DNA from: Escherichia coli | Lineage (GTDB): Bacteria > Pseudomonadota > Gammaproteobacteria > Enterobacterales > Enterobacteriaceae | Assembly: GCF_965641715.1 (NCBI RefSeq) | Contig: NZ_OZ282453.1 | Strand: one strand, 5' to 3' | Length of the DNA stretch: 64,000 nucleotides | Part shown: piece by piece, positions 1,385 through 48,265 of the stretch | Position numbering within the stretch: the first letter of the stretch is position 1 | Layout of the letters: each line of letters starts with the position of its first letter | Program-made: the position numbers and the translations under genes | The notes under the pieces: model-generated | The model's input: the letters and a program-made list of their open reading frames with translations, nothing else | What the model was told of the DNA's origin: nothing | Databases searched by the model: none

Positions 1385-4300
1385 TTATTTCTCCTCCGCG
1401 TCTTCAGTCTCTGCAGCAACGGCGTTAATTGTCACCTTCACAGGCGTCATTTCGTACCCGCCATACGTCAGTGCGTTGAATGTGAACGTATAGACACCTG
1501 GCTTGCTGGTACTAAATGTACGCGTGATTTTCCCACCTGAGAAATGGTCAGCCTTCGACGGCAGGAATTGATAATCCTTCTCCGTCACTCCTTCCGGAGC
1601 CTCAATGTCGACCCACATACTTCCTCCTACGGGATTGACTCCCGCCATCAGGGTAACCGTCATTGTTGCAGTAGTCTTCCCGTCCGCCACCAGAGAATCT
1701 ACACGTTCTGGAGATGCGGCGAGCACCGCGTTTTTATCATCCGCGACGAATTTAGATTCAGCAGTTTTCGTCGATACCTGACCGTTGGCCTGTTCCACTT
1801 TCGCCGTGAGTGTATATGTCGCTGCGATAGTGGTAGAGCCGGTGAAAACAGCCTGTCCTTGCTCATTAGTTTTCGCCGTCCCTTTAGGATCCAGAACTAA
1901 ATTTTCCGAGCTGGCAGTCAGCGTCACGTCGCTATCCTTCAACAGGTTGTTATTGGCATCAGTCACCGTAACTTTATACGTTTGTTTGGTTTTGCCATCC
2001 GCCACTGCACGGTTGCCAATCACCTCAATACTGGAGATGGTCGCCGTAGTCTTATCGGCCACAAACGTTACAGACTGCGCATTTGAAGGCTGGTCATTTC
2101 CTGCCGACGCCGTGATCTCATACGTTCCGGCAGTCACGGAGACCACTTTCAGTTCCGCTTTACCCTCCTTGTCGGCGTTCACCATGATATTACCGTCTGC
2201 AAGCGGTTTGACGCCCCGAGGCAGATTAAAGACGACCACAGCGCCAGGCAGAAGGTTGCCGTATTGATCCTTAACCGTTGCCGTCAGCGTAAAGGCATCA
2301 TTGTCGTTTGCCACTTTTGGCGTGCTGCCATCAACCTCCAGGGTCGCCTGACCGGTACTGAAATCCGCCTTGAATTTCACCGTAACCGTCTTCTGAGCAT
2401 TATTCACTGAGGCCGTGATGCTGTGTTCCCCGGCAACCGTTGACATAAGCTCAATGTCCACTTTCCCTGCCGCATTGGTTGTTACTGTATTCCCCGTCTT
2501 GCTGGTCACACCCTGCGGTAAAGTCAGCGTAACTTCTTGCCCCTGCAACGGGTTACCATAGCTGTCCACGACGGTCAGGGTTATCTGGTTAGCAGACTGT
2601 CCATTAGCCAGTTGGTTATTAACCTTCACTGTCATATCACGAATCTCAGCCTTAGATGCGTCACCTGCAACGTTCAGCACCAGTGGCTGAGCAACGGCAT
2701 TTTGGCCGTTCACTCGCGGCATCACAGACAACTGACCCGCGGCAGATCCCAGCGTTAAGGTCGACACGTAGACCCCATTACCTTTCTCTGTCCAGTTTCC
2801 TGCTGAAGGACGCTCACTCCCCGTGCTGGCGGCACCGCTAAACACTGGTGCATCTGGCTTCAGCCCGGTGACCGGGTTCCCGTACGCATCCTTCACGGTG
2901 AAGGTGAGTTCCGTCGTCGTTTTGACGGTCGGAGCCTTATTGTCCGCAACAAGCGTAGAGTTCGCTGATGACATCTCTCCGGCGATGACCGTCAACTGCG
3001 CGGCTTCGGTGGCTGCTGGCTGGCCGTTGAAGAGAGGCATGACGCGAAGCTCGCCCGTCTTTCCACCTGTAGTCAACGTAGCAACATAGGAACCGTTACC
3101 TTTTTCGGTCCAACTGGAAACGGTCGCCCCTTCAGAGGCGGTCCCCGTCAAACTTGCCGACAACGCAAGACCACTGATAGCGTTGCCATGCGCATCTTTC
3201 GCCACCAGCGTCACGGTTGTGCTTTCGCCGGCTTTTACGTGATCTTCTGCGACAGAGACTTTCGACTGGTTTGAAGATAACGCATCAGCCACCACGGTTA
3301 CTTTTGCCGCATTTGCTGCCGCATTCTGTCCATTTAGCTTCGGCATAACTTCTAATTCACCCGCCGTAGAGCCGAGAGTAATCTGCGCAGTCCACGTCCC
3401 ATCACCATTATTTGTCCAGCCCGATGCCGTAGAACCTTCAGCAGCGGCACCCGCTAATGACGGCGCTTCCGGCGTGAGGCTGGTCACAGGGTTGTCATAG
3501 GCATCTTTTACCGTCCAGATTGCCGTAACTGTACCCCCAACCACCGGTTTATCAGGATTCAGGGTGATGGACGAATGTGCTGCATCAAGCGGCCCGGCAA
3601 CAAACTTCAGCGTTTGTTGTAATGTGCCCAGCTGATACTGCTCGCTGAAAGCACGCACAACAACGTTTCCGGCACGGGTCGAAGAAACCGTGGCGCTGTA
3701 AACGCCTGGTTTTATTTCCGAAATGGCACCAACGGTTACACCATTAGTGTCTTGCGGAACAAATCGCAAGCGGCTGGCTTCTCCCGTCACCGGATTACCC
3801 TCGGAGTCCACCGCAGTCAACGTCAACGTATAGGCTTGCTGACCATCAGCAACCACGTCACCTGACGGCTCGTTAGCGCTCAGGGTGGAGTTTGCCACAT
3901 CCATCATCGTGGCCCGCAGTTCTGCAGTGACGGTTTTGCTCATGCCATCAACGCTAACAGTAATCGTTGCCTCACCTGACTGCGTTCCGGTAGTAAAGAC
4001 AGACTGATACACCCCTGCTTCAGTTTCGGTGAACTCACCCAGTGTTGGCTTTGCCTGTGATTTAGTGGCCTTCAGGGAACGAGTCACAATATTTCCAGCC
4101 GGTTTGAAAGTTAGTTCAGTCTTGATCTGATCTTTCATGCCCGTGACTGGCTGGCCCTCGGCGTCGCGCAGAGACAGCACCAGCGGTTTTTGCTCATTAC
4201 CGTTAGCAAGCATTTGAATACGGCTCTGACCGTCAAGCGTTAACGCCGTGCGATCGGCGCTCATACCTGCTCCGGTAATGACCACCTCTGTCTGCACGCG

Positions 4301-35391: not shown

Positions 35392-36621
35392 TTATGCTGG
35401 CCAATCCCACTGCTGATAGGCAGAGAATAGGCGCGTGAGCTCAGCAGGCGCAAGAATATCAACAATATTAGCTCTGTAGCTATGCGATTTACCTAATGGA
35501 ACATTTTCGAAATGATTAGCTTGATAAGGATTAAAATCGTGAAGCTCACCTAATGTTGAGATATCGGTATTAATAGTTTTAAGCCAAGAAACAAGAATTA
35601 CTTTTGCCCCTGTTCTCTGTATGTAAGCTCTTGCCGATTCAAAACTATAGCCTCGAGTTGTTATATCATCTATAAGAAGTACTGTTTTACCAGGGCCTAA
35701 AGGTGGTTTTTTATAGGTAGTTCTAGGATTTCTGTGTGGCTGAGAATTAAGACAAATTGTATTAAGTTGATTGCAATGGTCAATTGCAACTCCCTCATTT
35801 CTTGCTTTTTGAGATTTTTTGGAAGTCGTATGCCTTAAAATAAGATCTGGGATATACGTCTTGCGAAAACATTTTCCAAATATTGAAATCGCTTCATCCA
35901 TGATATTATTCCCATATCCTTGCTTATGCCCTGGATAAACACTAACATAATTAATCATCTTATGAATGCCACTAAAATAGAGACTGGATATTAAGGCACT
36001 CGTCCAAAATTCAGGATGGCCTAATCCATGTTTAGCAGCAGCACGAGCATCTTCAGAGTAAAGAGTATACTCTTCCTTCATGGTGCTGAAAGGAGCAAGT
36101 GCATAGAAATTAAAATCACCATCGTGAATTTCATGACACCAAAGATGCTCTCTTAAACAGAAGGTATCTATAAATCTAGCAATATCTTTAGGGGTTGAAA
36201 ACTCGAAACCATAATCTGTTTTGTCTGCCCACCATGTAGCTCTTAAAAAGAGCAACTCACCATTAACTGCTGTTTGCATGTCGTTTATCGAAGCACCAAT
36301 GTACAAAGTTTCTGTACTTTCCCAACCCATCAAATCAAGGACATATTTTGTAGCATCCGCAGTTGGCTTCCCTGGAATGCTCTTATCTTTCGCTCGACAA
36401 AGATATTTAAATTCTCCCCAATGCTTTTGTAACACATCCTCTAAAGGGGTTCTTTCATCTCCGACAACCCAACCCCTGTTAGTGAATACAACAAACTCGA
36501 TCTTTTTAGTTCTGAAATATCTAATTAATTTATCTACCTCTGCAAAGATTTCGCTATCGATCTTTCCCTTAGGCACAAGAATATCTTCAACACTAAGAAT
36601 CACACCCTTAATTTTGCTCAT
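35392..36621 (-). CDS. Protein with C-terminal phosphoribosyltransferase (PRTase) domain; ShosT-like candidate effector
   Basis: 409 aa; PRPP-binding motif VLLIDDITTRGYSF near the C-terminus; N-terminal ~250 aa unassigned; AT-rich; 11 bp downstream of the DprA-like gene. Confidence 0.65.
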   Translation of the reverse strand: MSKIKGVILSVEDILVPKGKIDSEIFAEVDKLIRYFRTKKIEFVVFTNRGWVVGDERTPLEDVLQKHWGEFKYLCRAKDKSIPGKPTADATKYVLDLMGWESTETLYIGASINDMQTAVNGELLFLRATWWADKTDYGFEFSTPKDIARFIDTFCLREHLWCHEIHDGDFNFYALAPFSTMKEEYTLYSEDARAAAKHGLGHPEFWTSALISSLYFSGIHKMINYVSVYPGHKQGYGNNIMDEAISIFGKCFRKTYIPDLILRHTTSKKSQKARNEGVAIDHCNQLNTICLNSQPHRNPRTTYKKPPLGPGKTVLLIDDITTRGYSFESARAYIQRTGAKVILVSWLKTINTDISTLGELHDFNPYQANHFENVPLGKSHSYRANIVDILAPAELTRLFSAYQQWDWPA

Positions 36622-36631
36622 TTCATCTTCC

Positions 36632-37612
36632 TTAGAGATCTAAGCTCTGCTGTATCGGCTGTGCTTTTAAATCATGATTATTATTCAAAATATAATTACT
36701 CATCTCATTCAATTCAAAAGGCATTAAAAAAGATAAAGAATTTCTATTTTCTTCAGCAAACTTCAATTCTGGTCTACTTTCATACGTAGTAGGAAGATAT
36801 GGACTCGCTATCTTTTTTGCATACTTAAAAGCATAATCAACAGTATGTGATGTTCCACTTTTAATATTCCATTCGACTGGTATTAGTGAATCACATAAAG
36901 CAGCCTGGATTCTGTTACGCCTTACAAAATTTTCTGCGCTATATGTTTGTTCAGGTAGATACTCGGTAACGATAGCCCCACCATTAGAAACTATTGCTCG
37001 ATATAACTCTTTAGAACCTTTCGGATACTCGACAAAAATCCCATTACCCAATACCGCAATAGTTGGAATGCCATATCTCAGCGATTCATAATGACAACAT
37101 TGATCTATTCCTGTCGCCAAACCACTGACTGTTGAAACATCTTTAGAATATAGAGAAGAAACAATCAGTTTTACTAGAAAAATACCATCATCCGTTGGCT
37201 TTCGTGTCCCCACAATTGCAACAGATTTCTTATTAAGAAGTTCATAATTACCATGAACAAAAATCCAAAATGGCGGATCGCTTATGTTCTTTAATGATTG
37301 AGGAAATGTAGCCTGATCATAAAAGGTGAGCACAATACCATTTTTATTGAGTTCACGAGCTCTCTCCAGTCCCTTAGACCAAAGGTCTTGTTGAAATGTT
37401 TCCCAAGATATATTTTTAGGCAAGGAAACTCTTAGATATCCTGCCAAGGCATCAGCTGTATTATCTTTTAATATATTCTTAAATCCAATTTTGGATTGAT
37501 AGATTTTGCGAAGCGTCCAGTAACCAACCCCCTTTAGACAAGTTAAGGCAAGAAACGCAATAATTTCATTTTTCCAAAACTCTCTAACTTCAGTGTAATC
37601 TTTATATTCCAT
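36632..37612 (-). CDS. DprA/Smf-like (SLOG-superfamily Rossmann) protein; ShosA-like candidate
   Basis: DprA signature region (VAIVGTRKPT ... SGLATGIDQCCH ... TIAVLGNGIFVEYP ... FVRRNRIQAAL); start set at the internal Met MEYKDY. Confidence 0.65.
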   Translation of the reverse strand: MEYKDYTEVREFWKNEIIAFLALTCLKGVGYWTLRKIYQSKIGFKNILKDNTADALAGYLRVSLPKNISWETFQQDLWSKGLERARELNKNGIVLTFYDQATFPQSLKNISDPPFWIFVHGNYELLNKKSVAIVGTRKPTDDGIFLVKLIVSSLYSKDVSTVSGLATGIDQCCHYESLRYGIPTIAVLGNGIFVEYPKGSKELYRAIVSNGGAIVTEYLPEQTYSAENFVRRNRIQAALCDSLIPVEWNIKSGTSHTVDYAFKYAKKIASPYLPTTYESRPELKFAEENRNSLSFLMPFELNEMSNYILNNNHDLKAQPIQQSLDL

Positions 37613-38027
37613 TTTACGTTTGCCTTTTAGATTACAACCCGTACTCAACACAAAAAATTTAGAAAATTGTTGCCAAAAGCATATTATAAATAGCATCTTA
37701 CCGCAGATTTGTGAAGCAACAACATCCCTAGGAGAAACCTTAACCTAGCGGGACAACTTACTGACCAATCCTCAGCTAGCTCATTGAATTGCCCCCATAT
37801 CGCACAGCCCCGCACGCCTGCCCGCTTCGCTTAACAGACTGGTTTTCATGCACCTCATAAATCGTCTCAGAAGCCACCAAACAAGGGCTTTCTCGTCAAA
37901 AATGGTGCATAAGACTCATGCGTTTTCATGCGCCATAGACATGCACTCATGCGCTCTCAGGCCAGCCAGGGAAAAGGTGTTAAAAATCCCGGTACTCGAC
38001 CGGGATTACGTAGGCGTTTTTTTCTAA

Positions 38028-38300
38028 TCAGACAGGAATCTGCTGACGGCTTGACAGTTTTGACGCGGAGCCATAGCGATTGAGCGTTTGCTGTTGTTTT
38101 ACCGGGGTTTGTGATTTGTCTGGTTCCTGTTCATTGCGCCGGGGTTTCATGATTATCTTATCCACACTCTCCAGTGCCGTAAATGTGCAGGAACATTCCA
38201 GATTCTGGCACTGATACCACGAGCGTTTAACTGACGGAGCTTCATAGGCTGCTGTTCTGGCGTGTGCAACTGTACCGCATTCCGGACATTTAAGTGCCAT
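38028..38300 (-). CDS. Ogr/Delta-family zinc-finger late-gene activator
   Basis: CPECG...(H)...YQCQNLECSCTF zinc-finger spacing as in P2 Ogr / P4 Delta. Confidence 0.75.
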   Translation of the reverse strand: MALKCPECGTVAHARTAAYEAPSVKRSWYQCQNLECSCTFTALESVDKIIMKPRRNEQEPDKSQTPVKQQQTLNRYGSASKLSSRQQIPV

Positions 38301-38305
38301 TAATA

Positions 38306-38857
38306 TCACTCCTGTATATCGTTAATGTCATTCAGGCGTTGCTGAAAACGCAGATGTTGTGCCGGGGTGTAAGAGCCCTGGCAATCACGAATCATACTGG
38401 GGTCAGGCATCAAACCGGATTCATCCAGGATCTCACGATAATCCCCGGCAATTTCAGGCGGTGTTATTGCCAGCTGGCGAACCAGAGCACTGCGTAATAT
38501 ACGGGACGCAACGTCAACCCCTCCGCGCCCCTTCAGGAACGGAGCCAGTGCAGATGTCAGGGCTGCCCCATTCGCCTGCATAAAATTGCTGAGAGCGGCT
38601 TCTGTGCAGGCCTCCATCAGTAAATGCTGCGAGTAAATGCATTCGCGCGCAGCACAGTTAATTTGCCATTTCAGCACATCCAGACGTTCCCGCAGGAATT
38701 CGAGCTGTCGGGCATAATCTGCTGGTTTTTCTGTGGCAGCGAGGAGAGATGTTATCTGTTGTTCAACGGCTTTTCGGCTCTCACTATGTCTGGCCCACAG
38801 AATACGGGCATTCCGAAAACTGGTAAGTACCTGGTCAGGTGTGCCTCGGGCCGTCAT
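38306..38857 (-). CDS. Psu-like (polarity suppression / capsid decoration) protein
   Basis: 183 aa; resembles my recollection of P4 Psu (LKWQINCAAR ... FMQANGAALTSALAPFL); overlaps neighbours by 4 bp. Confidence 0.55.
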   Translation of the reverse strand: MTARGTPDQVLTSFRNARILWARHSESRKAVEQQITSLLAATEKPADYARQLEFLRERLDVLKWQINCAARECIYSQHLLMEACTEAALSNFMQANGAALTSALAPFLKGRGGVDVASRILRSALVRQLAITPPEIAGDYREILDESGLMPDPSMIRDCQGSYTPAQHLRFQQRLNDINDIQE

Positions 38858-39597
38858 ACTGCTTTCTCCTTCTCAGCAAGTTCCTGACGAACCTTTATTT
38901 TATGCATAGCTGCTGGAGAGAGTTGATTACTGAAATCCAGACGCGCCGCATAATCCGGGGCAACTCCCGCCAGTTTAAACACCGGGTCCTGTTCAGGCAT
39001 CGCATCGTTAGCCAGAGCCGGTCTGGTGATATGTTTATGAATAAAGTCTTTCAGCACTGTGTCCGGGTCATTAACTGAATTCACCACACCCACAACGGCA
39101 CTGGCTTCCCGGCCCATTGTGGATTTAAGCAGGCTCAGCGTCTGAATAAGCGCTTTTCCATGCGACTGCATAAAATCCTCCCAGATTTGTTTTGCGCGAA
39201 TATCCACAAGAATGTTATGCGCGTGGATATACTTTCCGGCTAATTCCGCAGCTTTCTGCGGCAAAAGTGCATTTTCGCTTTCCTGAGCCGCCAGCAGCTC
39301 ATCAAAATCCTCAAGCGTTTCTCGTCCCAGCGCAATTTCCGTGCGCAGTTTTTTCATTTCCTTTGAGACCACGCCCTGACTTTCACGAAACAGCGTGCGC
39401 CACTCCTCATTCAGTGTATTCGTCGTGGATTCCATTTCAGCGCGACGCTGGCGGATTGTCGCAATATTATCCGCTGCCGCTTTCTGCTGACGACGTGCTT
39501 CAAGCCATGCGTTTCTGGCTGTGTTCATGGTTTCCAGTGCCCGCTGCGTTACAGCCGGAAAAGTGGAAAGGTTGTTATTCACTGCGGTGTTGTTCAT
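38854..39597 (-). CDS. Sid-like (capsid size determination) protein candidate
   Basis: 247 aa; Psu/Sid-fold-like segment; position upstream of psu-like. Confidence 0.45.
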   Translation of the reverse strand: MNNTAVNNNLSTFPAVTQRALETMNTARNAWLEARRQQKAAADNIATIRQRRAEMESTTNTLNEEWRTLFRESQGVVSKEMKKLRTEIALGRETLEDFDELLAAQESENALLPQKAAELAGKYIHAHNILVDIRAKQIWEDFMQSHGKALIQTLSLLKSTMGREASAVVGVVNSVNDPDTVLKDFIHKHITRPALANDAMPEQDPVFKLAGVAPDYAARLDFSNQLSPAAMHKIKVRQELAEKEKAV

Positions 39598-39776
39598 GAC
39601 TTCTCCTGTCGGGTTGGTTCGTTACGTCAATTGTGTCGTGGCTGACACAAGCACACTATCGGTGCTCAGTGTGTGGTGGCTGGCACAACGGGCGCTTGCG
39701 GTTATTCAGACGTGGCTATGAAAGCCAGCCAGATAAAAATGCCCACTGTTTCAGTCTGCTTTATGTCCCTGATGCG

Positions 39777-39964
39777 GTGGAACAGGTGAAACATGTGTTA
39801 CAGCTTTGTTTTATAAATCATTTATATACACTGCACCGGTGGAACATCGCGGGTAACAAGGTGGAACAGCGGATTGGCTGGCGTTACATCTGTTCCACCT
39901 CACTATTTCAGAAGGTGGAACAGGTTCAGCCCCTGTAAAATACGGTTGTTCCACCTGTTTCACC
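39777..39964. repeat. Iteron cluster: at least 8 copies of GGTGGAACA / TGTTCCACC (and GGTGAAACA variants) in both orientations; candidate replication region
   Basis: Copies at 39777, 39785, 39838, 39860, 39891, 39914, 39947, 39956; similar to the P4 type-I iteron TGTTCACC; immediately 3' of the alpha gene. Confidence 0.55.
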
Positions 39965-39998
39965 TGTTACCCTTAATAAATAAGACTCACGCAAAGCC

Positions 39999-42671
39999 TT
40001 AACCCGGCACCTCGCTGTTGAAGACATAGAGCCTGCGGGGATTCATCTCTGGCGGGCGAATGGTTGTCTGGAGTTTGCCATCAGTGGAGGGCAGCAGGTA
40101 TCCACGATCTGCGCACAGACGCGCCACCTTGCGCGGGTCAAATCCCCTGCAGATTTCTTTCCAGCCGGACGGCATGACATAAAACGTAGTGACAGCTTCC
40201 GTGCCCTGCGCGGTACTGCCTTTCTCCACCCTGCGCCAGCCCACCATATTGGCGGGGCGGTTGCGCTCGTCATACCAGTCTGCAAAGCGGCTGTACTGAT
40301 TCGCGGTAAAGAAACTGCGAACCTGCTCCAGTGCGGCGATATCTTCCTGATTGGCGGTGTGCCCGCGCTCTTTCAGCCATGCGTTCAGGCAGACGCGGGT
40401 TGCCCGCAATGCTTCACCCTCAGGCCAGCCGGTGATACCCTGACGGGTTGCCAGTTCACCTGCCATCGCCACCAGTGCAAAGCGGTTCACAGCCCGGCCC
40501 ACCTGATTGCCTGCATCTTTCGGAGTCAGGGCGGCAGCATATTCCTTCATCAGCGATTTTGCCTGTGCCGTTAGTCCGTTAAGATCAGCGGTCAGTGCTT
40601 TCAGCCACTCCCGGAACGGCGAACCGTAGTAGCAGGACGTGGCCCATTCAAGATGCTCTGCCAGAGCCTTGCCGCTGTCGAAGCCGTGCAGCTCCTCAAA
40701 AACGCCAAACTTCCCGGAATCGCTGGGGATCTGGATCATCCTGACTTCCATCCCGGCAAAAGTACGCTCACCGGCCTTTGCCGCATGTTCGGTCAGAGAT
40801 AACTCGCCAGTTGAAAAGAACAACAGGCGCCACTGCTTACGGGTACGCAGTTCACCGTCCGTACCGGCACGACCCTTGCCCTGACCGTTTGCCAGCATGT
40901 AGGCGATATTGCCTGCCTCGCGTCCGTCAACTTCCCGGATCTCATCAAGCATCATGGCGGCATCGTTGCGGCGGCTGGCACATCCCTCCAGCGCGTTGCC
41001 GGTGGCCCGCCATGTCTGCCAGTAGTCAGGCCCGCCGCAGACGGAGGTTGCCGCTTTCATGGTGGTGGTCTTACCGTCTGTCGATTCCCCTTTGAGGTGG
41101 TAGCCGCCGCCGTCCATACCAACCAGCCGTAACAGTGGTGCAGCAAAGGCCAGGCTGACAGCAAATGCCACGCGGGAGTTGCCGGTACAGTAGCGGGATA
41201 CGTTCTCCCGCCATTCCTCTGTTGTGCCCGACACGCGGAAATCACGCCCCTGCACGGAAGTGGTCTGGAGAATGACACCCTCTGCACCTTCACCGCTGAC
41301 CTCATCCTGCAGGACGTAAACCTGACCATGCCAGCCAGTACGGCTGACGCAGGTCACGCGACGTTCCGGTTTACACAGTGAGATATATTCCATCAGGCGT
41401 GCGCGTGCCTCACCGGTGGTGCTGATATAAGACAGCCCGTTAACAAGCAGTACCCGGCGCAGTTCCTCACCACTGCCGCTCAGCATTTCCATCGGCATCG
41501 CCCAGCGGCGACGCTCACCCCACGTATCTTCCCATTCCAGCAGTCGTCCGAAGTTACCGCCATCGGCATCGCAGGTGATTGCCGTCACGCGCAGCGGGCT
41601 GCATATTTTGACGTTCTGGATCTCCGTCTCACCGTTGCGCTGTACCTGCTTTTCATACCAGAGATATTCCTGGGTAAGACGGAACCCGTGCGGCAGTTGC
41701 GTGCGGCCTTCCCCGCACAGTACCAGACCGTTGCGAAAGGCTTCACGGGCACGGGTAATACCGTGCTCCCGATGAAAGTCATTCCAGTCAGCCTTAATCT
41801 CTCCTGGTGGCAGCGTCATCCAGCCGCCAACAGCTTTTGCCGCCCGTTCAGCAAAGGCTCTGCCGGGATTCTCCCCCCCGTCCTGAAAATCGTTATCACC
41901 GGCGATGATAATTTTTACCTCAGGCCAGCGTGCCCGCAGCGACTGCGCCACATTGGGCAGGTTGCCCGCAGATATGGCAGCCACTACGCATCCGGCAGTG
42001 AGCTGGCTTACCGTCAGCGCCGTAGCGTAACCTTCGGTAATCACCACCTGTACCGGTGGTTCAGACGGTAACGGGCTGAGCGACACAAACGCGCCTTTCA
42101 TCGTGCTGCCGGGCAGTATGCTTTTTTCACCCGTCGGGGCGATAAGCTGTGCACCGGTCACGGCTCCGGTGTTGGTCGTGAGTGGTAACAGCAGGGAACC
42201 AGCAGGAAAATCCTTACCGCTGATATGCTGCACGCTTCCGGTCAGAGAGGCCGGGTATCCGGCGAACCCTTTTCCTGCCAGATAGGCACTTTCTCCCGTG
42301 TGGCTCTCTTTCATCAGCGTCGCCACGGTAAGGCTCATGTCGCGTTTAGGGGCTTTTTGTCTGGCAGGCTTAACAGGCAGTTCCTGCACATCCGGCACAT
42401 TAAGCACCTGCGCCACCTGCTGCGCAGCCTTTCTGACGTTGTAGCCGGTTACGAGCTTAACCAGATCCAGACCGTCACCATTGCCACACTGGCTGCAGAT
42501 CCACGTCCCGCGCCCGTCAAGGTCATCGAGGCGAAAACGATCCTTGCCCCCACATTTCGGGCAGGGACCGTGCCTGCCGTTTTCAGGTACATCAATACGC
42601 AGCATATGCAGAATAACGGGCCATTTCCCCCGCGCGGCGGCTGAAATCTGCGTAACCGTCTGTATTGTCAT
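39999..42671 (-). CDS. P4 alpha-like primase/helicase
   Basis: 890 aa; N-terminal zinc-binding CPKCGG...CSQCG; Walker A GESTDGKTT. Confidence 0.8.
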   Translation of the reverse strand: MTIQTVTQISAAARGKWPVILHMLRIDVPENGRHGPCPKCGGKDRFRLDDLDGRGTWICSQCGNGDGLDLVKLVTGYNVRKAAQQVAQVLNVPDVQELPVKPARQKAPKRDMSLTVATLMKESHTGESAYLAGKGFAGYPASLTGSVQHISGKDFPAGSLLLPLTTNTGAVTGAQLIAPTGEKSILPGSTMKGAFVSLSPLPSEPPVQVVITEGYATALTVSQLTAGCVVAAISAGNLPNVAQSLRARWPEVKIIIAGDNDFQDGGENPGRAFAERAAKAVGGWMTLPPGEIKADWNDFHREHGITRAREAFRNGLVLCGEGRTQLPHGFRLTQEYLWYEKQVQRNGETEIQNVKICSPLRVTAITCDADGGNFGRLLEWEDTWGERRRWAMPMEMLSGSGEELRRVLLVNGLSYISTTGEARARLMEYISLCKPERRVTCVSRTGWHGQVYVLQDEVSGEGAEGVILQTTSVQGRDFRVSGTTEEWRENVSRYCTGNSRVAFAVSLAFAAPLLRLVGMDGGGYHLKGESTDGKTTTMKAATSVCGGPDYWQTWRATGNALEGCASRRNDAAMMLDEIREVDGREAGNIAYMLANGQGKGRAGTDGELRTRKQWRLLFFSTGELSLTEHAAKAGERTFAGMEVRMIQIPSDSGKFGVFEELHGFDSGKALAEHLEWATSCYYGSPFREWLKALTADLNGLTAQAKSLMKEYAAALTPKDAGNQVGRAVNRFALVAMAGELATRQGITGWPEGEALRATRVCLNAWLKERGHTANQEDIAALEQVRSFFTANQYSRFADWYDERNRPANMVGWRRVEKGSTAQGTEAVTTFYVMPSGWKEICRGFDPRKVARLCADRGYLLPSTDGKLQTTIRPPEMNPRRLYVFNSEVPG

Positions 42672-43051
42672 ACTTCCCCCTGATACAACGTCACACCAGT
42701 ACTGCAGAAGTCATCAAAGGTCGCCGGAAGCGTGCGGTACATCTCCGCCATTACTTCACAGCCGCGCGCGGTCAGTACCGGCGGCGCGGTCAGCAGTGAC
42801 GGCTCCAGCATGTCAGTCAGCAGTGCCAGCGCGGCAGCGGCGCCCTGTGCTTCGCCGTACTCGTTAATCAGTGCGCACTCGATATGCAGCGCAATGGCCA
42901 TTTCAATACGCTCCACCGTCAGGCTGTGCGGACCATACTGATCACTGCCAGTTTCGTTCAGCATTTTCTGCCGCCATGCTGAAGCAATAGCCCGCCGGTA
43001 AAGCGCGGTTGTCATTTCTGCCGGGAAAATGGAAACCTGCGGCTGGTTCAT
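42668..43051 (-). CDS. Hypothetical protein, satellite left operon
   Basis: 127-aa ORF; 4-bp overlap with the alpha start and the upstream ORF. Confidence 0.4.
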   Translation of the reverse strand: MNQPQVSIFPAEMTTALYRRAIASAWRQKMLNETGSDQYGPHSLTVERIEMAIALHIECALINEYGEAQGAAAALALLTDMLEPSLLTAPPVLTARGCEVMAEMYRTLPATFDDFCSTGVTLYQGEV

Positions 43052-43332
43052 CTGGCACCTCCTTCAATCAGTGCACAGCTGTGCGCAATATCCGTCAAAT
43101 CTGCCCGCAGGTACTCCATCAGCGCGGCGACACCATGCGCACAGCCAGCGTCCAGTGCTCCGGCCTGAGACGGGTATTCAGAAAAGAGAAGCTGGAGCAT
43201 GTCGCAGGCATTTCTTGCGCGGGTCAGCTTTCCGAAACTGTCCTCTGACAACCCATAGGCAAAAGCACCGGTATTGTGTTTTTCAGGCAAAGTGTGGCCC
43301 TGAGCACCGTTGTGCCCGTTTGAAATATTCAT
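43048..43332 (-). CDS. Hypothetical protein, satellite left operon (epsilon-position)
   Basis: 94-aa ORF in an overlapping gene train. Confidence 0.4.
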   Translation of the reverse strand: MNISNGHNGAQGHTLPEKHNTGAFAYGLSEDSFGKLTRARNACDMLQLLFSEYPSQAGALDAGCAHGVAALMEYLRADLTDIAHSCALIEGGAR

Positions 43333-43363
43333 CGTGGATTACTCCGTTTTCAGCGGTATTTTG

Positions 43364-43723
43364 TCAGAGAAACTTTGAATAGTGACCGTCGTCAGGCTCA
43401 GCAGAACGCCGTATGCTACGCTCCCGCCAGCGGATAAATAGCACAGACGGATGCAGTGTCAGCGGGCCGGAACCACTACCGCCTGCAGGAGCTGGTGCAG
43501 GCTTAAAGAGCGGTACATCAAACAGGCGCGTATACCGCTGTTCAAACCATGCCAGAGGGCAGGAAGAAAGCTGGTTGTCGCTGTCATGACGTATCAGCAC
43601 TTCACAGCTGAATTCAGGATTAACCAGCGCCACAGAGGGCGAGGCTTCAATTAATCGGATAATCGTGACCGTCCAGCCACGTTCATGCTGCCAGCGTTCG
43701 CCGGGGTGCGGATAATTACGCAT
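43364..43723 (-). CDS. Hypothetical protein, satellite left operon
   Basis: 119 aa from the internal Met MRNYPHPGERW; ATG overlaps the stop of the upstream small ORF. Confidence 0.4.
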   Translation of the reverse strand: MRNYPHPGERWQHERGWTVTIIRLIEASPSVALVNPEFSCEVLIRHDSDNQLSSCPLAWFEQRYTRLFDVPLFKPAPAPAGGSGSGPLTLHPSVLFIRWRERSIRRSAEPDDGHYSKFL

Positions 43724-43892
43724 GTTCACCTCCGCAGGGAATGCGCCCGGCAAAGCTCAGTACATAATCCGGGGCAAGTCTTCGCCGCGCTGACCGCTCG
43801 TTATCTGCGGTGATCCTTAACATCACAGGACGGGCATTGCGTTGACTGCGGTTGATCGCCGCAAATAACCAGGTACACTTCTGTTTAGCCAT
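43716..43892 (-). CDS. Small basic protein (58 aa), first gene of the left operon
   Basis: ATG with AAGAGG Shine-Dalgarno 8 nt upstream; MAKQKCTWLFAAINRSQRNARPVMLRI...; not in the ORF track. Confidence 0.3.
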   Translation of the reverse strand: MAKQKCTWLFAAINRSQRNARPVMLRITADNERSARRRLAPDYVLSFAGRIPCGGEHA

Positions 43893-43983
43893 CTTCGTTA
43901 CCTCTTATAACGGTTGGTTAAATGCCCGATTTGTGTTCCCGCACAATCGGGCATTGCTTTTACAAGCGAACTATACTTACAAT

Positions 43984-44023
43984 GGTAATTACCATGTAGT
44001 CATCATATTCCAGGGTAATTACC
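43984..44023. promoter_or_regulatory. Two copies of the perfect 10-bp palindrome GGTAATTACC (43984-43993 and 44014-44023); candidate operators
   Basis: Read directly; between the divergent left operon and the RHH ORF. Confidence 0.4.
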
Positions 44024-44197
44024 ATGTCAACACCACAAGAGAAACGTTCCCCACCATTCCAAATGCGTCTTACCGACGATTTTAGGTTGCAACTCGAAAA
44101 AGAAATGCGCAAAGATGGAGATAGCGCGTTGGCAACTTGGATTAAAAGAATTTTACGTAAAGAACTACAATCACGCGGGATTGACCCTAAAGGTTAA
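44024..44197 (+). CDS. Ribbon-helix-helix (Arc/MetJ-like) candidate repressor, 57 aa
   Basis: MSTPQEKRSPPFQMRLTDDFRLQLEKEMRKDGDSALATWIKRILRKELQSRGIDPKG; beta-strand plus two helices pattern; not in the ORF track. Confidence 0.45.
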   Translation: MSTPQEKRSPPFQMRLTDDFRLQLEKEMRKDGDSALATWIKRILRKELQSRGIDPKG

Positions 44198-44229
44198 TCA
44201 GTTAAATATTACTAACTATCAATTAAGGC

Positions 44230-44520
44230 TTAGGGAGTAGGTGATAATCTATTCCCTTTATTAATTGCTCTTGCCTTATTTCTCATCCCCTCAAACTGTT
44301 GACCTGAGTTTTCTTCAAACCCATCTCGCCACTTATAATAATCAGCAGCGCGCCATCGGGACATCCGACCTATTTTTATAGGTTTTGGAAAGCGATTCAG
44401 AGAAATCAATCGATAAATCCATTTGTCACTTAATAAACAATCGGAAGTAATAAACTTCATATCGATCAGAGAATCCATTGAAGGTCGTTGCAAAGTAGTA
44501 TTATCATGTTTAGATAACAT
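44230..44520 (-). CDS. alpA: AlpA-family prophage regulatory protein
   Basis: Motif IYRLISLNRFPKPIKIGRMSRWRAADYYKW typical of AlpA; true start may be an internal Met. Confidence 0.65.
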   Translation of the reverse strand: MLSKHDNTTLQRPSMDSLIDMKFITSDCLLSDKWIYRLISLNRFPKPIKIGRMSRWRAADYYKWRDGFEENSGQQFEGMRNKARAINKGNRLSPTP

Positions 44521-44645
44521 TCATCATTCTCCGTTTATCTAAGTCTATTGGCTTCAACACGGAAAATTAAAACATAGGTTATAAATGAGAAAAATGTGAC
44601 TAATGAAAAAAATCCAAAATCATTAGTCACAATAATTGTTAACAT

Positions 44646-45470
44646 TTAGTTAAACTTAATGTTTTTCATGCAACTACGTAGCAAGCTAACAACAGTATCA
44701 TAGCTCAAAGGTGGTTCTCCGGTCTTAGGCCAGAACTCACTGGCATGTTGAAAAAGATAATCAGCTATCGCTGCTGGACTCTCTCTTCTTAGCCTCATAT
44801 CACGATGATAGAGCGAAATAATAGCCATGAGTATTTCAGTTCGAGGAACAGCATGTTTTTGTTTTTGCGCCTCAGATTGTGATTTATATTTATTGGCGTT
44901 TTTTATCCGTTTTTGTTCGCATAAGACTATATCAATGAATTTTTGAATCTGTACCTTTGTAATCCACAAAACCTCAAAAAGATAATAATTTTCTTTTTCA
45001 TCATAATTTACATAAAGAATTACCTTACAATTTATATTAGGCGTACCCGCCAGTAGAAAATGAATAGGCCAGGAATCCGGTTGCCCCTCATGCTTAACTA
45101 ACAGATCTTTATATTCATAATCAACAGCCCATAAACCGGATATAAAGCATCGAATAAAACCATTTTTATCAATTAAATTATTTTCATCAGGGATTCTTAT
45201 AGAGCTTAAGTCTGACAACATAATATTGCCATTTCTATCTCGTGGTAAATATTTCAGATTAGATAAGAACTCATCCAGTTGACCATCAATCTTCAAACCA
45301 CATGAAACATCATACTCATCATCATGGAATTCCATGCATAGCTCTACATCTCGTTCTCTGGCAAACCAGAGTATATCCTTTTCACTACAACCAATTTTTT
45401 CTGAAGCTTCATCCAACTGGTAGTAATCTCTGAGCAGAGAATCAGTATTATTAATTTTTAAAATATTCAT
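44646..45470 (-). CDS. Hypothetical protein (274 aa), AT-rich island cargo
   Basis: Long ORF; start overlaps the integrase stop by 4 bp; no motif recognised. Confidence 0.5.
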   Translation of the reverse strand: MNILKINNTDSLLRDYYQLDEASEKIGCSEKDILWFARERDVELCMEFHDDEYDVSCGLKIDGQLDEFLSNLKYLPRDRNGNIMLSDLSSIRIPDENNLIDKNGFIRCFISGLWAVDYEYKDLLVKHEGQPDSWPIHFLLAGTPNINCKVILYVNYDEKENYYLFEVLWITKVQIQKFIDIVLCEQKRIKNANKYKSQSEAQKQKHAVPRTEILMAIISLYHRDMRLRRESPAAIADYLFQHASEFWPKTGEPPLSYDTVVSLLRSCMKNIKFN

Positions 45471-46657
45471 TTATGAGTACCAATTAGCTCAGATAAATAA
45501 TTAGCATACCATTGCATCATTTCTCTTCTCCCTTCGAGATATTGGGCATGGTTATAAATTCCACGAATAGAGTTTTTGTCCGAATGAGCAAGCTGGGTTT
45601 CAATCCAAGCGCTGTTAAATCCTTTCTCATGTAGAATTGTACTCATCGTATGCCTGAAACCATGTCCCGTAACACGCCCTGCATATCCAATACGTTTAAA
45701 CACCTGATTGATGCTTGCTTCACTCATAAATTTGCTAGGATCGTTGCGTCCAGGGAACATCAGCGGGTAGTTCCCAGTTAGTTCTTTCAAACTTTTGAGA
45801 TGGGATAATGCTTGTTTTGGTAACGGGACAATATGGCTCCTACGCATTTTCATACGTTCTTTTGGGATCTCCCACACCGCATTATCAAAATCCACCTCTC
45901 GCCACTCACCTGCTCGTAGTTCTCCAGTTCGTAGACCTGTCAGGATAAGTAAATGCGCCCCCAACAATACAATTGGACTTCCTGAATAAGAATTAAGGGC
46001 ATTAAAGAACTCCGGTAGTTCGTTGGCTTTGAGGAATGGATAGTGGACTGCTTCATGTCCTTGCATCGCACTGGCAAGATCCGGTGCCGGATTGTAGATT
46101 GCCCTACCCGTTACGATGGCATAGCGAAAAACTTCACCGCATCGCTGACGGACTTTCTTCGCTTTCTCCATAGCGCCTCGAGCTTCTATCAACCTCAGAA
46201 CTTCAAGCAGTTCAAGGGGCTGAATATCAGCTATAGGTCTGTGCCCAATATGCGGAAAAATGTCTTTCTCAAATGCCTCAATGATGTCGGAAGCATAGCC
46301 CTCAGACCATTTGGATGATTTCATTTTGTGCCACTCTAACGCCACTTCTCTGAATGGGTTAAGTGTCTCAATCGCTGCGTTTAAAGCCTGCTTTTTGGCT
46401 TTTTTGACTTCGCCGGGATCTTCACCTGCTGCGAGTAGTTTCTTTGCGTCTTCTCGTTTTTGTCTGGCATCAGCAAGTGTGACTGTTGGATAAACACCAA
46501 AGGACAATCGTTTCTCTTTACCAGCAAAACGGTATTTCATACGCCAGTAACGCGAGCCATTAGGTTCGACCTGAAGGTATAGGCCACCTCCATCAAACAG
46601 CTTATAGCTCTTCTCTTTTCCTTTCGCAGCTTCAACCTTGCGGGCATTCAGCATCAT
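45467..46657 (-). CDS. int: Tyrosine integrase (P4-type), tRNA-adjacent
   Basis: N-terminal SYKLFDGGGLYLQVEPNGSRYWRMKYRF; C-terminal catalytic HxxR...Y (HGFRHT ... GIYNHAQYLEGR); ORF extends to 46726. Confidence 0.85.
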   Translation of the reverse strand: MMLNARKVEAAKGKEKSYKLFDGGGLYLQVEPNGSRYWRMKYRFAGKEKRLSFGVYPTVTLADARQKREDAKKLLAAGEDPGEVKKAKKQALNAAIETLNPFREVALEWHKMKSSKWSEGYASDIIEAFEKDIFPHIGHRPIADIQPLELLEVLRLIEARGAMEKAKKVRQRCGEVFRYAIVTGRAIYNPAPDLASAMQGHEAVHYPFLKANELPEFFNALNSYSGSPIVLLGAHLLILTGLRTGELRAGEWREVDFDNAVWEIPKERMKMRRSHIVPLPKQALSHLKSLKELTGNYPLMFPGRNDPSKFMSEASINQVFKRIGYAGRVTGHGFRHTMSTILHEKGFNSAWIETQLAHSDKNSIRGIYNHAQYLEGRREMMQWYANYLSELIGTHK

Positions 46658-46821
46658 TGGGGGCACATTTCCTAGACCGAACAGAACATGCCCCTGATTG
46701 TGCCCCCAACCGCGTGTTGATTTCAAGAGACAAGGGTTGACCTCAAACGTATGAAAACAACGTAATATATATGTTTTTAAATGATTTTGTTGATGTGGGT
46801 TGACTTGGGAAAACTAGGTGA

Positions 46822-46897
46822 TGGTGCCGATAATAGGAGTCGAACCTACGACCTTCGCATTACGAATGCGCTGCTCTACCAACTGAGCTATATCGGC
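46822..46897 (-). tRNA. thrW: tRNA-Thr (anticodon CGU)
   Basis: 76-nt cloverleaf GCCGATATAGCTCAGTTGGTAGAGCAGCGCATTCGTAATGCGAAGGTCGTAGGTTCGACTCCTATTATCGGCACCA on the minus strand; 3' end duplicated at attL. Confidence 0.9.
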
Positions 46898-47011
46898 CCT
46901 GAAAGGACATGTTCACGAACGTGAATCACGGTGGACAAGGGTAAAACTAACCGGGCGATGCGTCAATGGCCTTGTGAATCAAATGGCTACTTTTGCATCA
47001 CCCGGTTTTAT

Positions 47012-48265
47012 TTACGCACGAATGGTGTAATCACCAATGCCGATCCACTTGTAAGTGGTCAGTGCTTCCAGCCCCATTGGGCCACGCGCGTGGAGTTTTT
47101 GTGTGCTTACCGCCACTTCCGCACCCAGTCCAAACTGGCCGCCGTCGGTAAAACGCGTAGAGGCGTTAACGTAAACAGCGGACGAATCCACTTCGTTAAC
47201 AAAACGCTGGGCGTTGCGCATATCGCGGGTCAGGATCGCATCGGAGTGTTGTGTGCCGTGTTCACGAATATGGGCGATGGCATCGTCAAGATCGCTGACG
47301 ATTTTGACGTTCAAATCTAATGACAGAAACTCATCGTCATACTCTTCGGCTTTAACCGCCACCACCTTCGCGGGGCCTGCCTGCAACTGTGTCAGCGCAG
47401 CTGCATCTGCGTGTACTGTCACGCCGCTTTCCGCCATTTGTTTGCTTAATGCGGGCAGGAAGCTATCGGCGATGTTTTTATTCACCAGCAACGTTTCTAC
47501 CGTATTACATGTGCTCGGACGCTGAGTTTTCGCGTTGACGATCACTTTTAATGCTTCAGCGATCTCTGCACTTTCATCAACGTAAATATGGCATACGCCT
47601 ATACCACCTGTGATCACCGGGATCGTCGACTGTTCGCGGCACAGTTTATGCAAACCAGCCCCGCCGCGCGGGATCAGCATGTCGATGTATTTATCCATAC
47701 GCAGCATTTCACTGACCAGCGCACGGTCAGGATTATCAATCGCCTGCACGGCACCCGCCGGTAAGCCACAGGATTTCAGGGCGTCCTGAATCACCGCCAC
47801 CGTTGCAGCGTTAGTGCGACAGGTTTCTTTGCCACCGCGCAGGATCACCGCGTTACCTGTTTTCAGGCACAGCGAAGCGACATCAACCGTCACGTTCGGG
47901 CGCGCTTCATAAATCACGCCAATAACCCCCAGCGGTACGCGACGACGCTCAAGACGCAGGCCGCTGTCCAGTACGCCGCCATCGATTACCTGCCCCACCG
48001 GATCGGCGAGGTTGCACACCTGGCGCACATCATCGGCAATGCCTTTCAGCCGTGCGGGCGTCAGTGCCAGACGGTCAAGCATCGCTTCGCTAAGGCCATT
48101 GGCACGCGCGTCAGCAACATCCTGGGCGTTAGCGTTGAGGATGATTTCGCTTTGTGCTTCCAGTTCATCGGCGATTTTTTCCAGCACGCGATTTTTTTCG
48201 CGGCTGGAGAGTTGCGCTAATTTATACGAGGCTTGCTTCGCGGCAATGCCCATTTGTTCCAGCAT
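47012..48265 (-). CDS. proA: Gamma-glutamyl phosphate reductase
   Basis: 417 aa, full-length match to ProA by recollection. Confidence 0.95.

Follow-up and report, generated by a model that had tools for sequence, protein, structure and literature searches.

A ribbon-helix-helix protein gene with twin palindromes as a putative repressor/operator switch of a P4-like satellite in Escherichia coli

Introduction

The locus described here has its closest described counterparts in phage immunity regions. In immI of phage P22, Arc and Mnt act at the overlapping Pant and Pmnt, together with the sar antisense RNA, and phage P2, the helper of P4-like satellites, carries the Pe/Pc switch. By analogy, immI is the closest analogue of the present locus as a whole and Pe/Pc the closest in operator geometry, and the mechanism proposed below is of a known kind.

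Among satellites, the Gram-positive PICIs (SaPIs) encode a divergent repressor, Stl or Rpr, between the integrase side and the replication operon; the Stl proteins are larger than the protein described here and are counteracted by helper-phage proteins that bind them (PMC6092414). For Gram-negative PICIs, the founding paper called the global repressor ‘unclear’ and the islands ‘transcribed unidirectionally’ (PMC6092414), and a later survey of PICI gene content makes no mention of a small divergent repressor (PMC10111431); other later surveys are likewise silent on it. Our literature search, the coverage of which excluded most subscription journals, found no paper naming or studying the ribbon-helix-helix (RHH) protein in satellites.

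Here, we analyse a 64,000-nucleotide stretch of E. coli DNA (contig NZ_OZ282453.1; the window), for which an earlier note had proposed that a short RHH-like ORF and two palindromes form a repressor/operator switch of a satellite.

Results

Island context and distribution

Judged by its gene content, the element in the window is a P4-like satellite, with thrW as its integration site. E. coli PSJ-36 has a 99.9% identical island at tRNA-Thr, which carries an integrase gene, an unknown 274-aa gene, an alpA-like gene, the RHH ORF, an Icd-like gene, three small genes, a TOPRIM/DUF927 primase gene, psu, and a delta/ogr-like gene; the hallmarks of P4-like satellites (integrase, AlpA/Vis-like protein, alpha-type primase, Psu, and Delta/Ogr-like protein) are all present, and the ORF layout of the window agrees. 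The 274-aa ORF between the integrase and alpA-like genes (44646-45470 in the window, - strand) had no match in NCBIfam or PHROGs. Next to delta/psu, at the position of the P4 defence hotspot, the window island carries a ShosTA defence pair (35392-36621 and 36632-37612, both - strand), in which PADLOC identified the phosphoribosyltransferase as ShosT (E = 1e-93) and the DprA-like protein as ShosA (E = 2.5e-90).

The earlier note had placed the RHH ORF between a divergent left operon and alpA, and the flanking genes bear this out. On one side, the leftward operon begins with an Icd-like cell-division-inhibitor gene (43716-43892, - strand; NCBIfam NF033153, E = 5.5e-24, and RefSeq) and ends with the TOPRIM/DUF927 primase gene (39999-42671, - strand; RefSeq annotation). 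On the other lies an AlpA/Vis-like helix-turn-helix gene (44230-44520, - strand; PHROG 66 and 2790, ‘excisionase and transcriptional regulator’, and AlpA family/HTH in RefSeq), which is upstream of and co-oriented with the leftward operon and convergent with the RHH gene. A consensus scan placed no minus-strand terminator between the alpA-like gene and the leftward operon.

The ORF, its divergent spacing of ~130 bp, and both palindromes are conserved in homologous islands across three bacterial families, and the module was found in P4-like, PICI, and capsid-forming-PICI-like islands, the last of these being elements with TerL and portal genes, one of which is deposited as ‘Pasteurella phage Pmp8’. 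In all contexts examined, the RHH gene lies ~130 bp divergent from an operon that ends in a DUF927 or D5_N primase, and most relatives have an Icd-like gene in the first leftward position. No homolog of the RHH gene occurs in phage P4 itself, where vis and kil are only about 180 bp apart. In a Gilliamella island, the Rfam int-alpA RNA motif RF02996 was found at L002 11242-11307 (- strand), scoring 41 bits where the gathering cut-off is 35.8; the scan of window positions 36000-48000 did not report it.

The 57-aa protein

The ORF at 44024-44197 (+ strand) encodes the 57-aa product MSTPQEKRSPPFQMRLTDDFRLQLEKEMRKDGDSALATWIKRILRKELQSRGIDPKG, here regarded as a putative satellite repressor of the Arc-like RHH type. 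It is a real gene under strong, frame-specific purifying selection: across 36 distinct coding sequences, with synonymous sites saturated, its frame gave a pN of 0.16, a mean pS of 0.74, and a pN/pS of 0.22, pairwise dN/dS was 0.04-0.19, and the other five frames gave pN/pS of 0.43-2.08, none below 0.43. The 57-codon ORF of the earlier note, with its ATG start, is thereby confirmed. A Shine-Dalgarno-like AGGG (44012-44015, + strand) lies 8 nt upstream of the ATG, and a purine-rich AGG/GGAG/AGGA stretch is kept at this position in relatives of both operator classes described below. Just 3′ of the stop codon, a terminator-like hairpin (44232-44257, + strand) was picked up by the consensus scan only.

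A word-indexed search recovered 85 homologs of almost constant length and 56-98% identity, from Escherichia, Salmonella, Klebsiella, Citrobacter, Erwinia, Pantoea, Yersinia, Xenorhabdus, Photorhabdus, Gilliamella, Pasteurella, and others, so that the satellites bearing them span Enterobacterales, Orbaceae, and Pasteurellaceae. The family is compact, since only 37 clusters matched when 1.8 billion cluster representatives were searched exhaustively with a profile. A few homologs are named ‘Arc family DNA-binding protein’ or ‘HicB-like’ in databases, and one database entry (P0085) is a frameshifted copy of the window protein, the same to residue 26 and then in another frame, for a total of 71 aa.

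Among 5426 complete E. coli genomes, 454 carry the RHH gene. Nucleotide identity is 60-80% in 389 of these, and the matches listed in that range come mostly from Shiga-toxin-type strains (O157:H7, O111). The gene had been called unannotated, which holds only in part: in the PSJ-36 island it is the RefSeq hypothetical protein WP_021537047.1, whereas in the O157:H7 relative inspected, the PICI of strain E32511 (NZ_CP038380.1; L084 9047-9220, + strand), the ORF is intact and carries no annotation. In E32511, PGAP calls an ‘Icd-like, incomplete’ pseudogene opposite the RHH ORF, and an antisense frame stays open for 314 codons, crossing the RHH gene and entering the Icd-like gene, which recalls P4 Eta/Kil. 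Most other matches listed at 60-80% identity show just an Icd-like feature under the match.

By fold the protein fits a distant Arc-like RHH branch, and Pfam thresholds do not place it clearly within the Arc family. The Arc/MetJ-like pattern suggested earlier is recovered in the two-helix core and the G-x-S turn, and the structure matches of the model are RHH proteins only, Arc included. Helix A, a tight turn, and helix B superimpose on solved RHH proteins; the turn is D-G-D-S at residues 31-34, with G32 invariant in alignment A1 and nearly so in A4, and distant members share the strand, helix A, the G-x-S turn, and helix B with its RGIEPKG end. In the monomer model residues 1-17 are extended, and a linker-fused dimer AlphaFold model (pLDDT 52) contains no strand and no intersubunit beta-ribbon. 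The query itself matched nothing in Pfam or NCBIfam and matched PHROG 228, ‘Arc-like repressor’, at E = 0.002; for Pfam Arc (PF03869), three of 32 homologs matched at E ≤ 1e-3 and 10 of 32 at E ≤ 0.1 (best 1.6e-4), and the wider homolog set gave weak matches to Arc, HicB, RHH_1, and RHH_5 alike.

Arc reads bases through the alternate strand residues Q9, N11, and R13. An hhalign comparison with the single Arc sequence, which agrees with PDB 1arq, set PQFNLRW of Arc on PQYQMRL of the family at a modest P = 3.6e-4, and the family pattern (Q/P)-(Y/F)-Q-M-R-L aligns to Q-F-N-L-R-W. The positions of Arc N11 and R13 correspond to Q13 and R15, which are kept in the family, and position 11 is mostly Q and is P in the window protein. 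Searches of the PDB gave little: NikR ranked first with Foldseek and was not significant, a wider sequence profile placed AmrZ and HP0222 (both RHH) on top at E of about 0.5, and a narrow profile returned designed helical-repeat proteins only, which were rejected as a compositional artefact.

Twin palindromes and facing promoters

Two perfect 10-bp palindromes, spaced 30 bp start to start, had been reported next to the ORF, and both were found as described: GGTAATTACC occupies 43984-43993 and 44014-44023, and the second abuts the start codon, its last base being 44023 and the ATG beginning at 44024. These are the only exact copies of GGTAATTACC in the 64-kb window. The repeat unit exceeds 10 bp and forms a 14-bp direct repeat, GGTAATTACCATGT. 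Around the first copy, the putative operator O1 (43982-43995, no strand assigned) is a perfect 14-bp palindrome, ATGGTAATTACCAT; around the second, the putative operator O2 (44012-44025, no strand assigned) reads AGGGTAATTACCAT. Copies with one mismatch at 4274, 38822, 42036, and 55283 were not counted as part of the switch, since the exact 8-bp core GTAATTAC occurs in the window at O1 and O2 alone. In most relatives, GGTnnnnACC sites lie at -40/-41 (O1) and -10 (O2) from the ATG, with the GGT/ACC arms conserved and the centre more variable.

The only strong promoter that a generic scan picked out here is on the minus strand. This leftward early promoter (44002-44030, - strand; 11 of 12 consensus matches) has a -35 box TTGACA at 44030-44025, a 17-bp spacer, and a -10 box TATGAT at 44007-44002, with a predicted start near 43995; from its position, it is the counterpart of P4 P_LE and the promoter that would drive the Icd-like/primase operon. 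Its TTGACA overlaps codons 1-3 of the RHH ORF and keeps its offset in 56 of 58 distinct relatives, and 54 of the 58 leftward promoters score 10-11 of 12. The palindromes bracket its -10 box: O2 falls within the 17-bp spacer and separates the RHH gene's Shine-Dalgarno sequence from its ATG, and O1 spans about +1 to +14 of the leftward transcript. The repeated sites thus overlap the core promoter of the operon divergent from the RHH gene, as in phage-type immunity.

A candidate promoter for the RHH gene (43954-43983, + strand), below the threshold of the generic scan, consists of TTGCTT at 43954-43959, an 18-bp spacer, and TACAAT at 43978-43983; this -10 box abuts O1, and the predicted start near 43990 lies inside it. 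In 33 of the 58 relatives, TACAAT or TATAAT at -46/-47 abuts O1 and is preceded by TTGnTT 16-18 bp upstream. Scoring 8-9 of 12, the rightward promoter appears weak. The two promoters face each other with predicted starts about 5 bp apart, and polymerase footprints on them would be mutually exclusive.

Linkage of protein and operator

Across the 2.9 million contigs of IMG/VR, exact twin palindromes with an 18-23 bp gap were confined to 24 stretches. Directly downstream of 22 of these lies a homolog of the RHH ORF, and the other two are unrelated tandem repeats; because 22 of 24 twin sites precede a homolog, the pairing is not a matter of chance. The corresponding search with the AT-rich TGTAATTACA pair, the second operator class, was unspecific: nine of 30 stretches adjoin a homolog, and the other 21, which lack a detectable homolog, are probably chance matches.

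The operator class follows the N-terminal arm of the protein. In raw counts across related sequences, proteins with the arms K(T/S)DQYQ, NKSQQYQ, or GNPPFQF go with TGTAATTACA operators and those with the arm RSP(Q/P)(Y/F)Q go with GGTAATTACC; ‘KKSP’-arm proteins have mixed sites. The strand residues and the GTAATTAC core are constant between the classes, and a contact from the arm to the outer base, possibly from Arg8 to guanine, may underlie the difference.

A natural exchange separates the palindromes from AlpA. The PICIs of CFT073 and O157:H7 both occupy the roxA-pepT site, their AlpA proteins are 94% identical, and the small gene downstream is nearly identical; between sharp alignment break points, a YlcI/YnfO gene and two GGTGTGGCCCAC repeats in CFT073 take the place of the RHH gene and GGTAATTACC in O157:H7. 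Since the repeats switch with the small gene despite 94% identical AlpA, AlpA is unlikely to be their reader. The shared downstream gene is a second small arginine-rich gene of 57-62 aa, 3′ of the repressor gene (L084 9263-9451, + strand; L083 45243-45416, - strand), with DNA nearly identical between the E32511 and CFT073 PICIs; it has no family match and is absent from the window island. The co-variation with the RHH arm and the joint swap under near-identical AlpA also leave the palindromes with no other known operator to explain them. Protein and sites are conserved and co-vary, from which we infer that the RHH protein binds this DNA.

The alternative cassette of the model PICI EcCICFT073 comprises a 59-aa YlcI/YnfO-family gene (L083 45474-45653, - strand; about 1,380,473-1,380,770 of NC_004431.1) and the two GGTGTGGCCCAC repeats near L083 45725-45765. 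The gene shares with the RHH gene its slot, orientation, size, Icd-like leader, and possession of a repeat pair of its own; it differs in belonging to NCBIfam NF041551, with an hhalign P of only 0.005, and in that its repeats are direct and not palindromic. The arrangement resembles an alternative specificity/repressor cassette. The literature search, again with most subscription journals outside its coverage, found no paper on the function of this cassette in satellites.

A candidate antisense RNA over the Icd-like gene

From folding and covariation, what remains of the intergenic region appears to encode a 76-nt cis-antisense RNA (43887-43962, + strand), whose sequence is complementary to the Icd-like gene across its start codon and ribosome-binding site. 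The candidate comprises a 5′ stem-loop (43895-43913) with an anti-Shine-Dalgarno CCUCU in its loop, a conserved UGGUUAGA linker, and a GC-rich terminator hairpin (43921-43955) followed by a U-run, with the 3′ end near 43961. Its minimum free energy is -28.5 kcal/mol (z = -5.2). Across 39 distinct relatives, the 19 pairs are 92.4% paired, compared with 78.5% in shuffles, and 15 pairs show compensatory changes, a number reached in 0 of 500 shuffles (raw counts across related sequences). In the 46-sequence alignment A5, the wobble pairs of the terminator hairpin comprise 96 G.U on the + strand and 11 A.C, a bias that identifies the folded molecule as the rightward transcript, antisense to the Icd-like translation start.

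The candidate promoter of this RNA, a weak match, would lie inside the first Icd-like codons (43852-43879, + strand), with TTGATC at 43852-43857, a 16-bp spacer, and TACACT at 43874-43879. A TAnnnT hexamer ends 10 nt before the start-codon complement in 29 of 40 distinct relatives and 4 nt before it in eight more; the encoded amino acids vary across the hexamer, which argues for a constraint at the DNA level such as a -10 box.

Rfam has no family for this RNA: SymR (RF01809) matched it weakly over its full length (31.6 bits in the window and 30.5 bits in island L037), and membership was rejected at half the gathering score of 61. Membership of C4 (RF01695) was likewise rejected, with no match at E ≤ 1 in window positions 36000-48000; the model works on relatives, scoring 62-81 bits in islands L020 and L037. 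There, C4, IsrK, and c4-a1b1 elements lie downstream in the leftward operon (L020 5253-5451; L037 3091-3296 and 5025-5208; all - strand). By these matches, RNA immunity of the P4/P1 type occurs alongside the RHH protein in some islands; the window island has none of these elements.

Discussion

The earlier proposal of a repressor/operator switch is supported by the predicted RHH fold, the conservation of the ORF in homologous islands, and palindromes that no other known operator explains; we infer binding and repression from these. The RHH protein and the twin sites on the main early promoter are, as far as sequence comparison can tell, probably the on/off switch of the satellite. We consider it likely that the protein is an Arc/Mnt-type RHH repressor that would bind and silence the satellite early promoter, regulate its own synthesis, and yield to the induction route outlined here. 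In this mechanism, RHH dimers would bind O2, in the spacer, and O1, at the start site, of the near-consensus sigma-70 promoter, and the occupied operators would exclude RNA polymerase, keeping the Icd-like gene, the small genes, and the primase silent. The promoters face each other with starts about 5 bp apart, so repressing the strong leftward one would free the weak rightward one, and occupancy of O1 would cap the latter. The cis-antisense RNA would probably add a translational lock on the Icd-like gene in transcripts that escape, and might also cause polarity on downstream genes; the c4 RNA of phage P1 causes polarity on icd-ant.

Induction would most likely come from transcripts of the alpA promoter that read leftward, antisense through the RHH gene and its operators, and into the operon, a read-through that would commit the island to induction. 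EcCICFT073 has the cassette of the other type; there, the helper activates alpA transcription and over-expression of AlpA alone induces the island (PMC6092414), so the small repressor need not be the primary target of induction. Because some relatives carry C4/IsrK RNAs, the RHH protein may also be one of several locks.

The comparison with known systems runs along several lines. Self-regulation of the satellite repressor, as proposed here, resembles that of P22 Mnt at Pant/Pmnt or P2 C at Pe/Pc. Unlike its P22 counterparts, the RHH protein is only marginally similar to Arc and has no Mnt-type C-terminal domain; the satellite has two separate 10-14-bp palindromes 30 bp apart where P22 has one operator of 17-21 bp; and the satellite operon encodes an Icd-like protein and a primase where P22 has the phage antirepressor. 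With the P2/186 switch (C or CI at Pe/Pc or pR/pL) it shares face-to-face promoters and two repeats that flank the early -10 box, although P2 C is a helix-turn-helix protein reading direct repeats and the satellite protein is RHH-like, reads palindromes by our proposal, and has no homology to it. Like Stl/Rpr, the RHH gene is divergent and lies between the integrase side and the satellite replication operon. The P4 CI RNA and P1 c4-icd-ant systems have in common with the window an Icd/Kil-like first gene, a strong early promoter, and RNA control of a translation initiation region; in contrast to CI and c4, the RNA proposed here would be a true cis-antisense transcript from the opposite strand. 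In this it is like SymR/SymE, in which the ~77-nt SymR has its promoter inside the target gene, overlaps the start codon and ribosome-binding site, and is built from a 5′ stem-loop and a terminator; given an unrelated target gene and sub-threshold scores, this is an analogy rather than membership.

An alternative is that the RHH protein acts late or in feedback, as Arc, Cro, or Cox do, being made after induction to turn the early promoter down again. The protein is Arc-sized (Arc has 53 aa) and lacks the Mnt C-terminal tetramerisation domain, its promoter is weak and occluded by O1, and C4-type RNAs could maintain silence in some relatives, all of which would suit such a role. Arc, Cro, and Cox are each encoded by the first gene of the operon that they control, whereas the RHH gene is divergent from its operon, the topology of Mnt, C, and Stl, and the window island has no C4 RNA for maintenance; we therefore regard a feedback role as unlikely. 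Slightly less probable still is that the module mainly controls a toxin, in addiction or abortive infection, with the RHH protein and the antisense RNA silencing a toxic Icd-like inhibitor rather than governing the life cycle. The Icd-like identity of the first downstream gene in most relatives would agree with this, as would the position of the antisense RNA precisely on the Icd-like ribosome-binding site, in the manner of a type I antitoxin, and its weak SymR-like match. However, the primase operon is under the same promoter in every context examined, and RHH antitoxins are normally co-transcribed with their toxin, not divergent from it.

It is improbable that the ORF is merely a neighbour of palindromes bound by some other factor (AlpA/Vis, integrase, IHF, or a protein of the helper phage): alpA is adjacent, and AlpA-family proteins regulate such islands (PMC6092414), but different repeats, exchanged along with the small divergent gene, occur beside AlpA proteins that are 94% identical; the RHH N-terminal arm and the outer operator base co-vary; and 22 of 24 IMG/VR twin sites abut an RHH gene. 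A chance ORF beside promoter-associated symmetry with no dedicated protein, which its shortness and the lack of a Pfam or NCBIfam match for the query might suggest, is effectively refuted by the frame-specific purifying selection, a set of proteins, fixed in length and 56-98% identical, that spans three bacterial families, and the conserved Shine-Dalgarno sequence.

Beyond a repressor of the early promoter in this island, a broader and more tentative reading, one we hold possible but doubtful, is that the cassette and the antisense RNA are the missing master-repressor module of Gram-negative PICIs and many P4-like satellites, with exchangeable types that define immunity groups and that helpers must overcome through AlpA read-through or a repressor-binding protein. 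The specificity types would then be RHH/GGTAATTACC, RHH/TGTAATTACA, and YlcI/YnfO/GGTGTGGCCCAC.

What is new is the location, a divergent repressor cassette with operators in Gram-negative satellites; the type of mechanism is already known. If these cassettes are silencing switches, the waking of satellites by helper phages would become directly testable, satellites could be typed by immunity, and the compact repressor/operator pairs, with their natural specificity variants, would be useful genetic parts.
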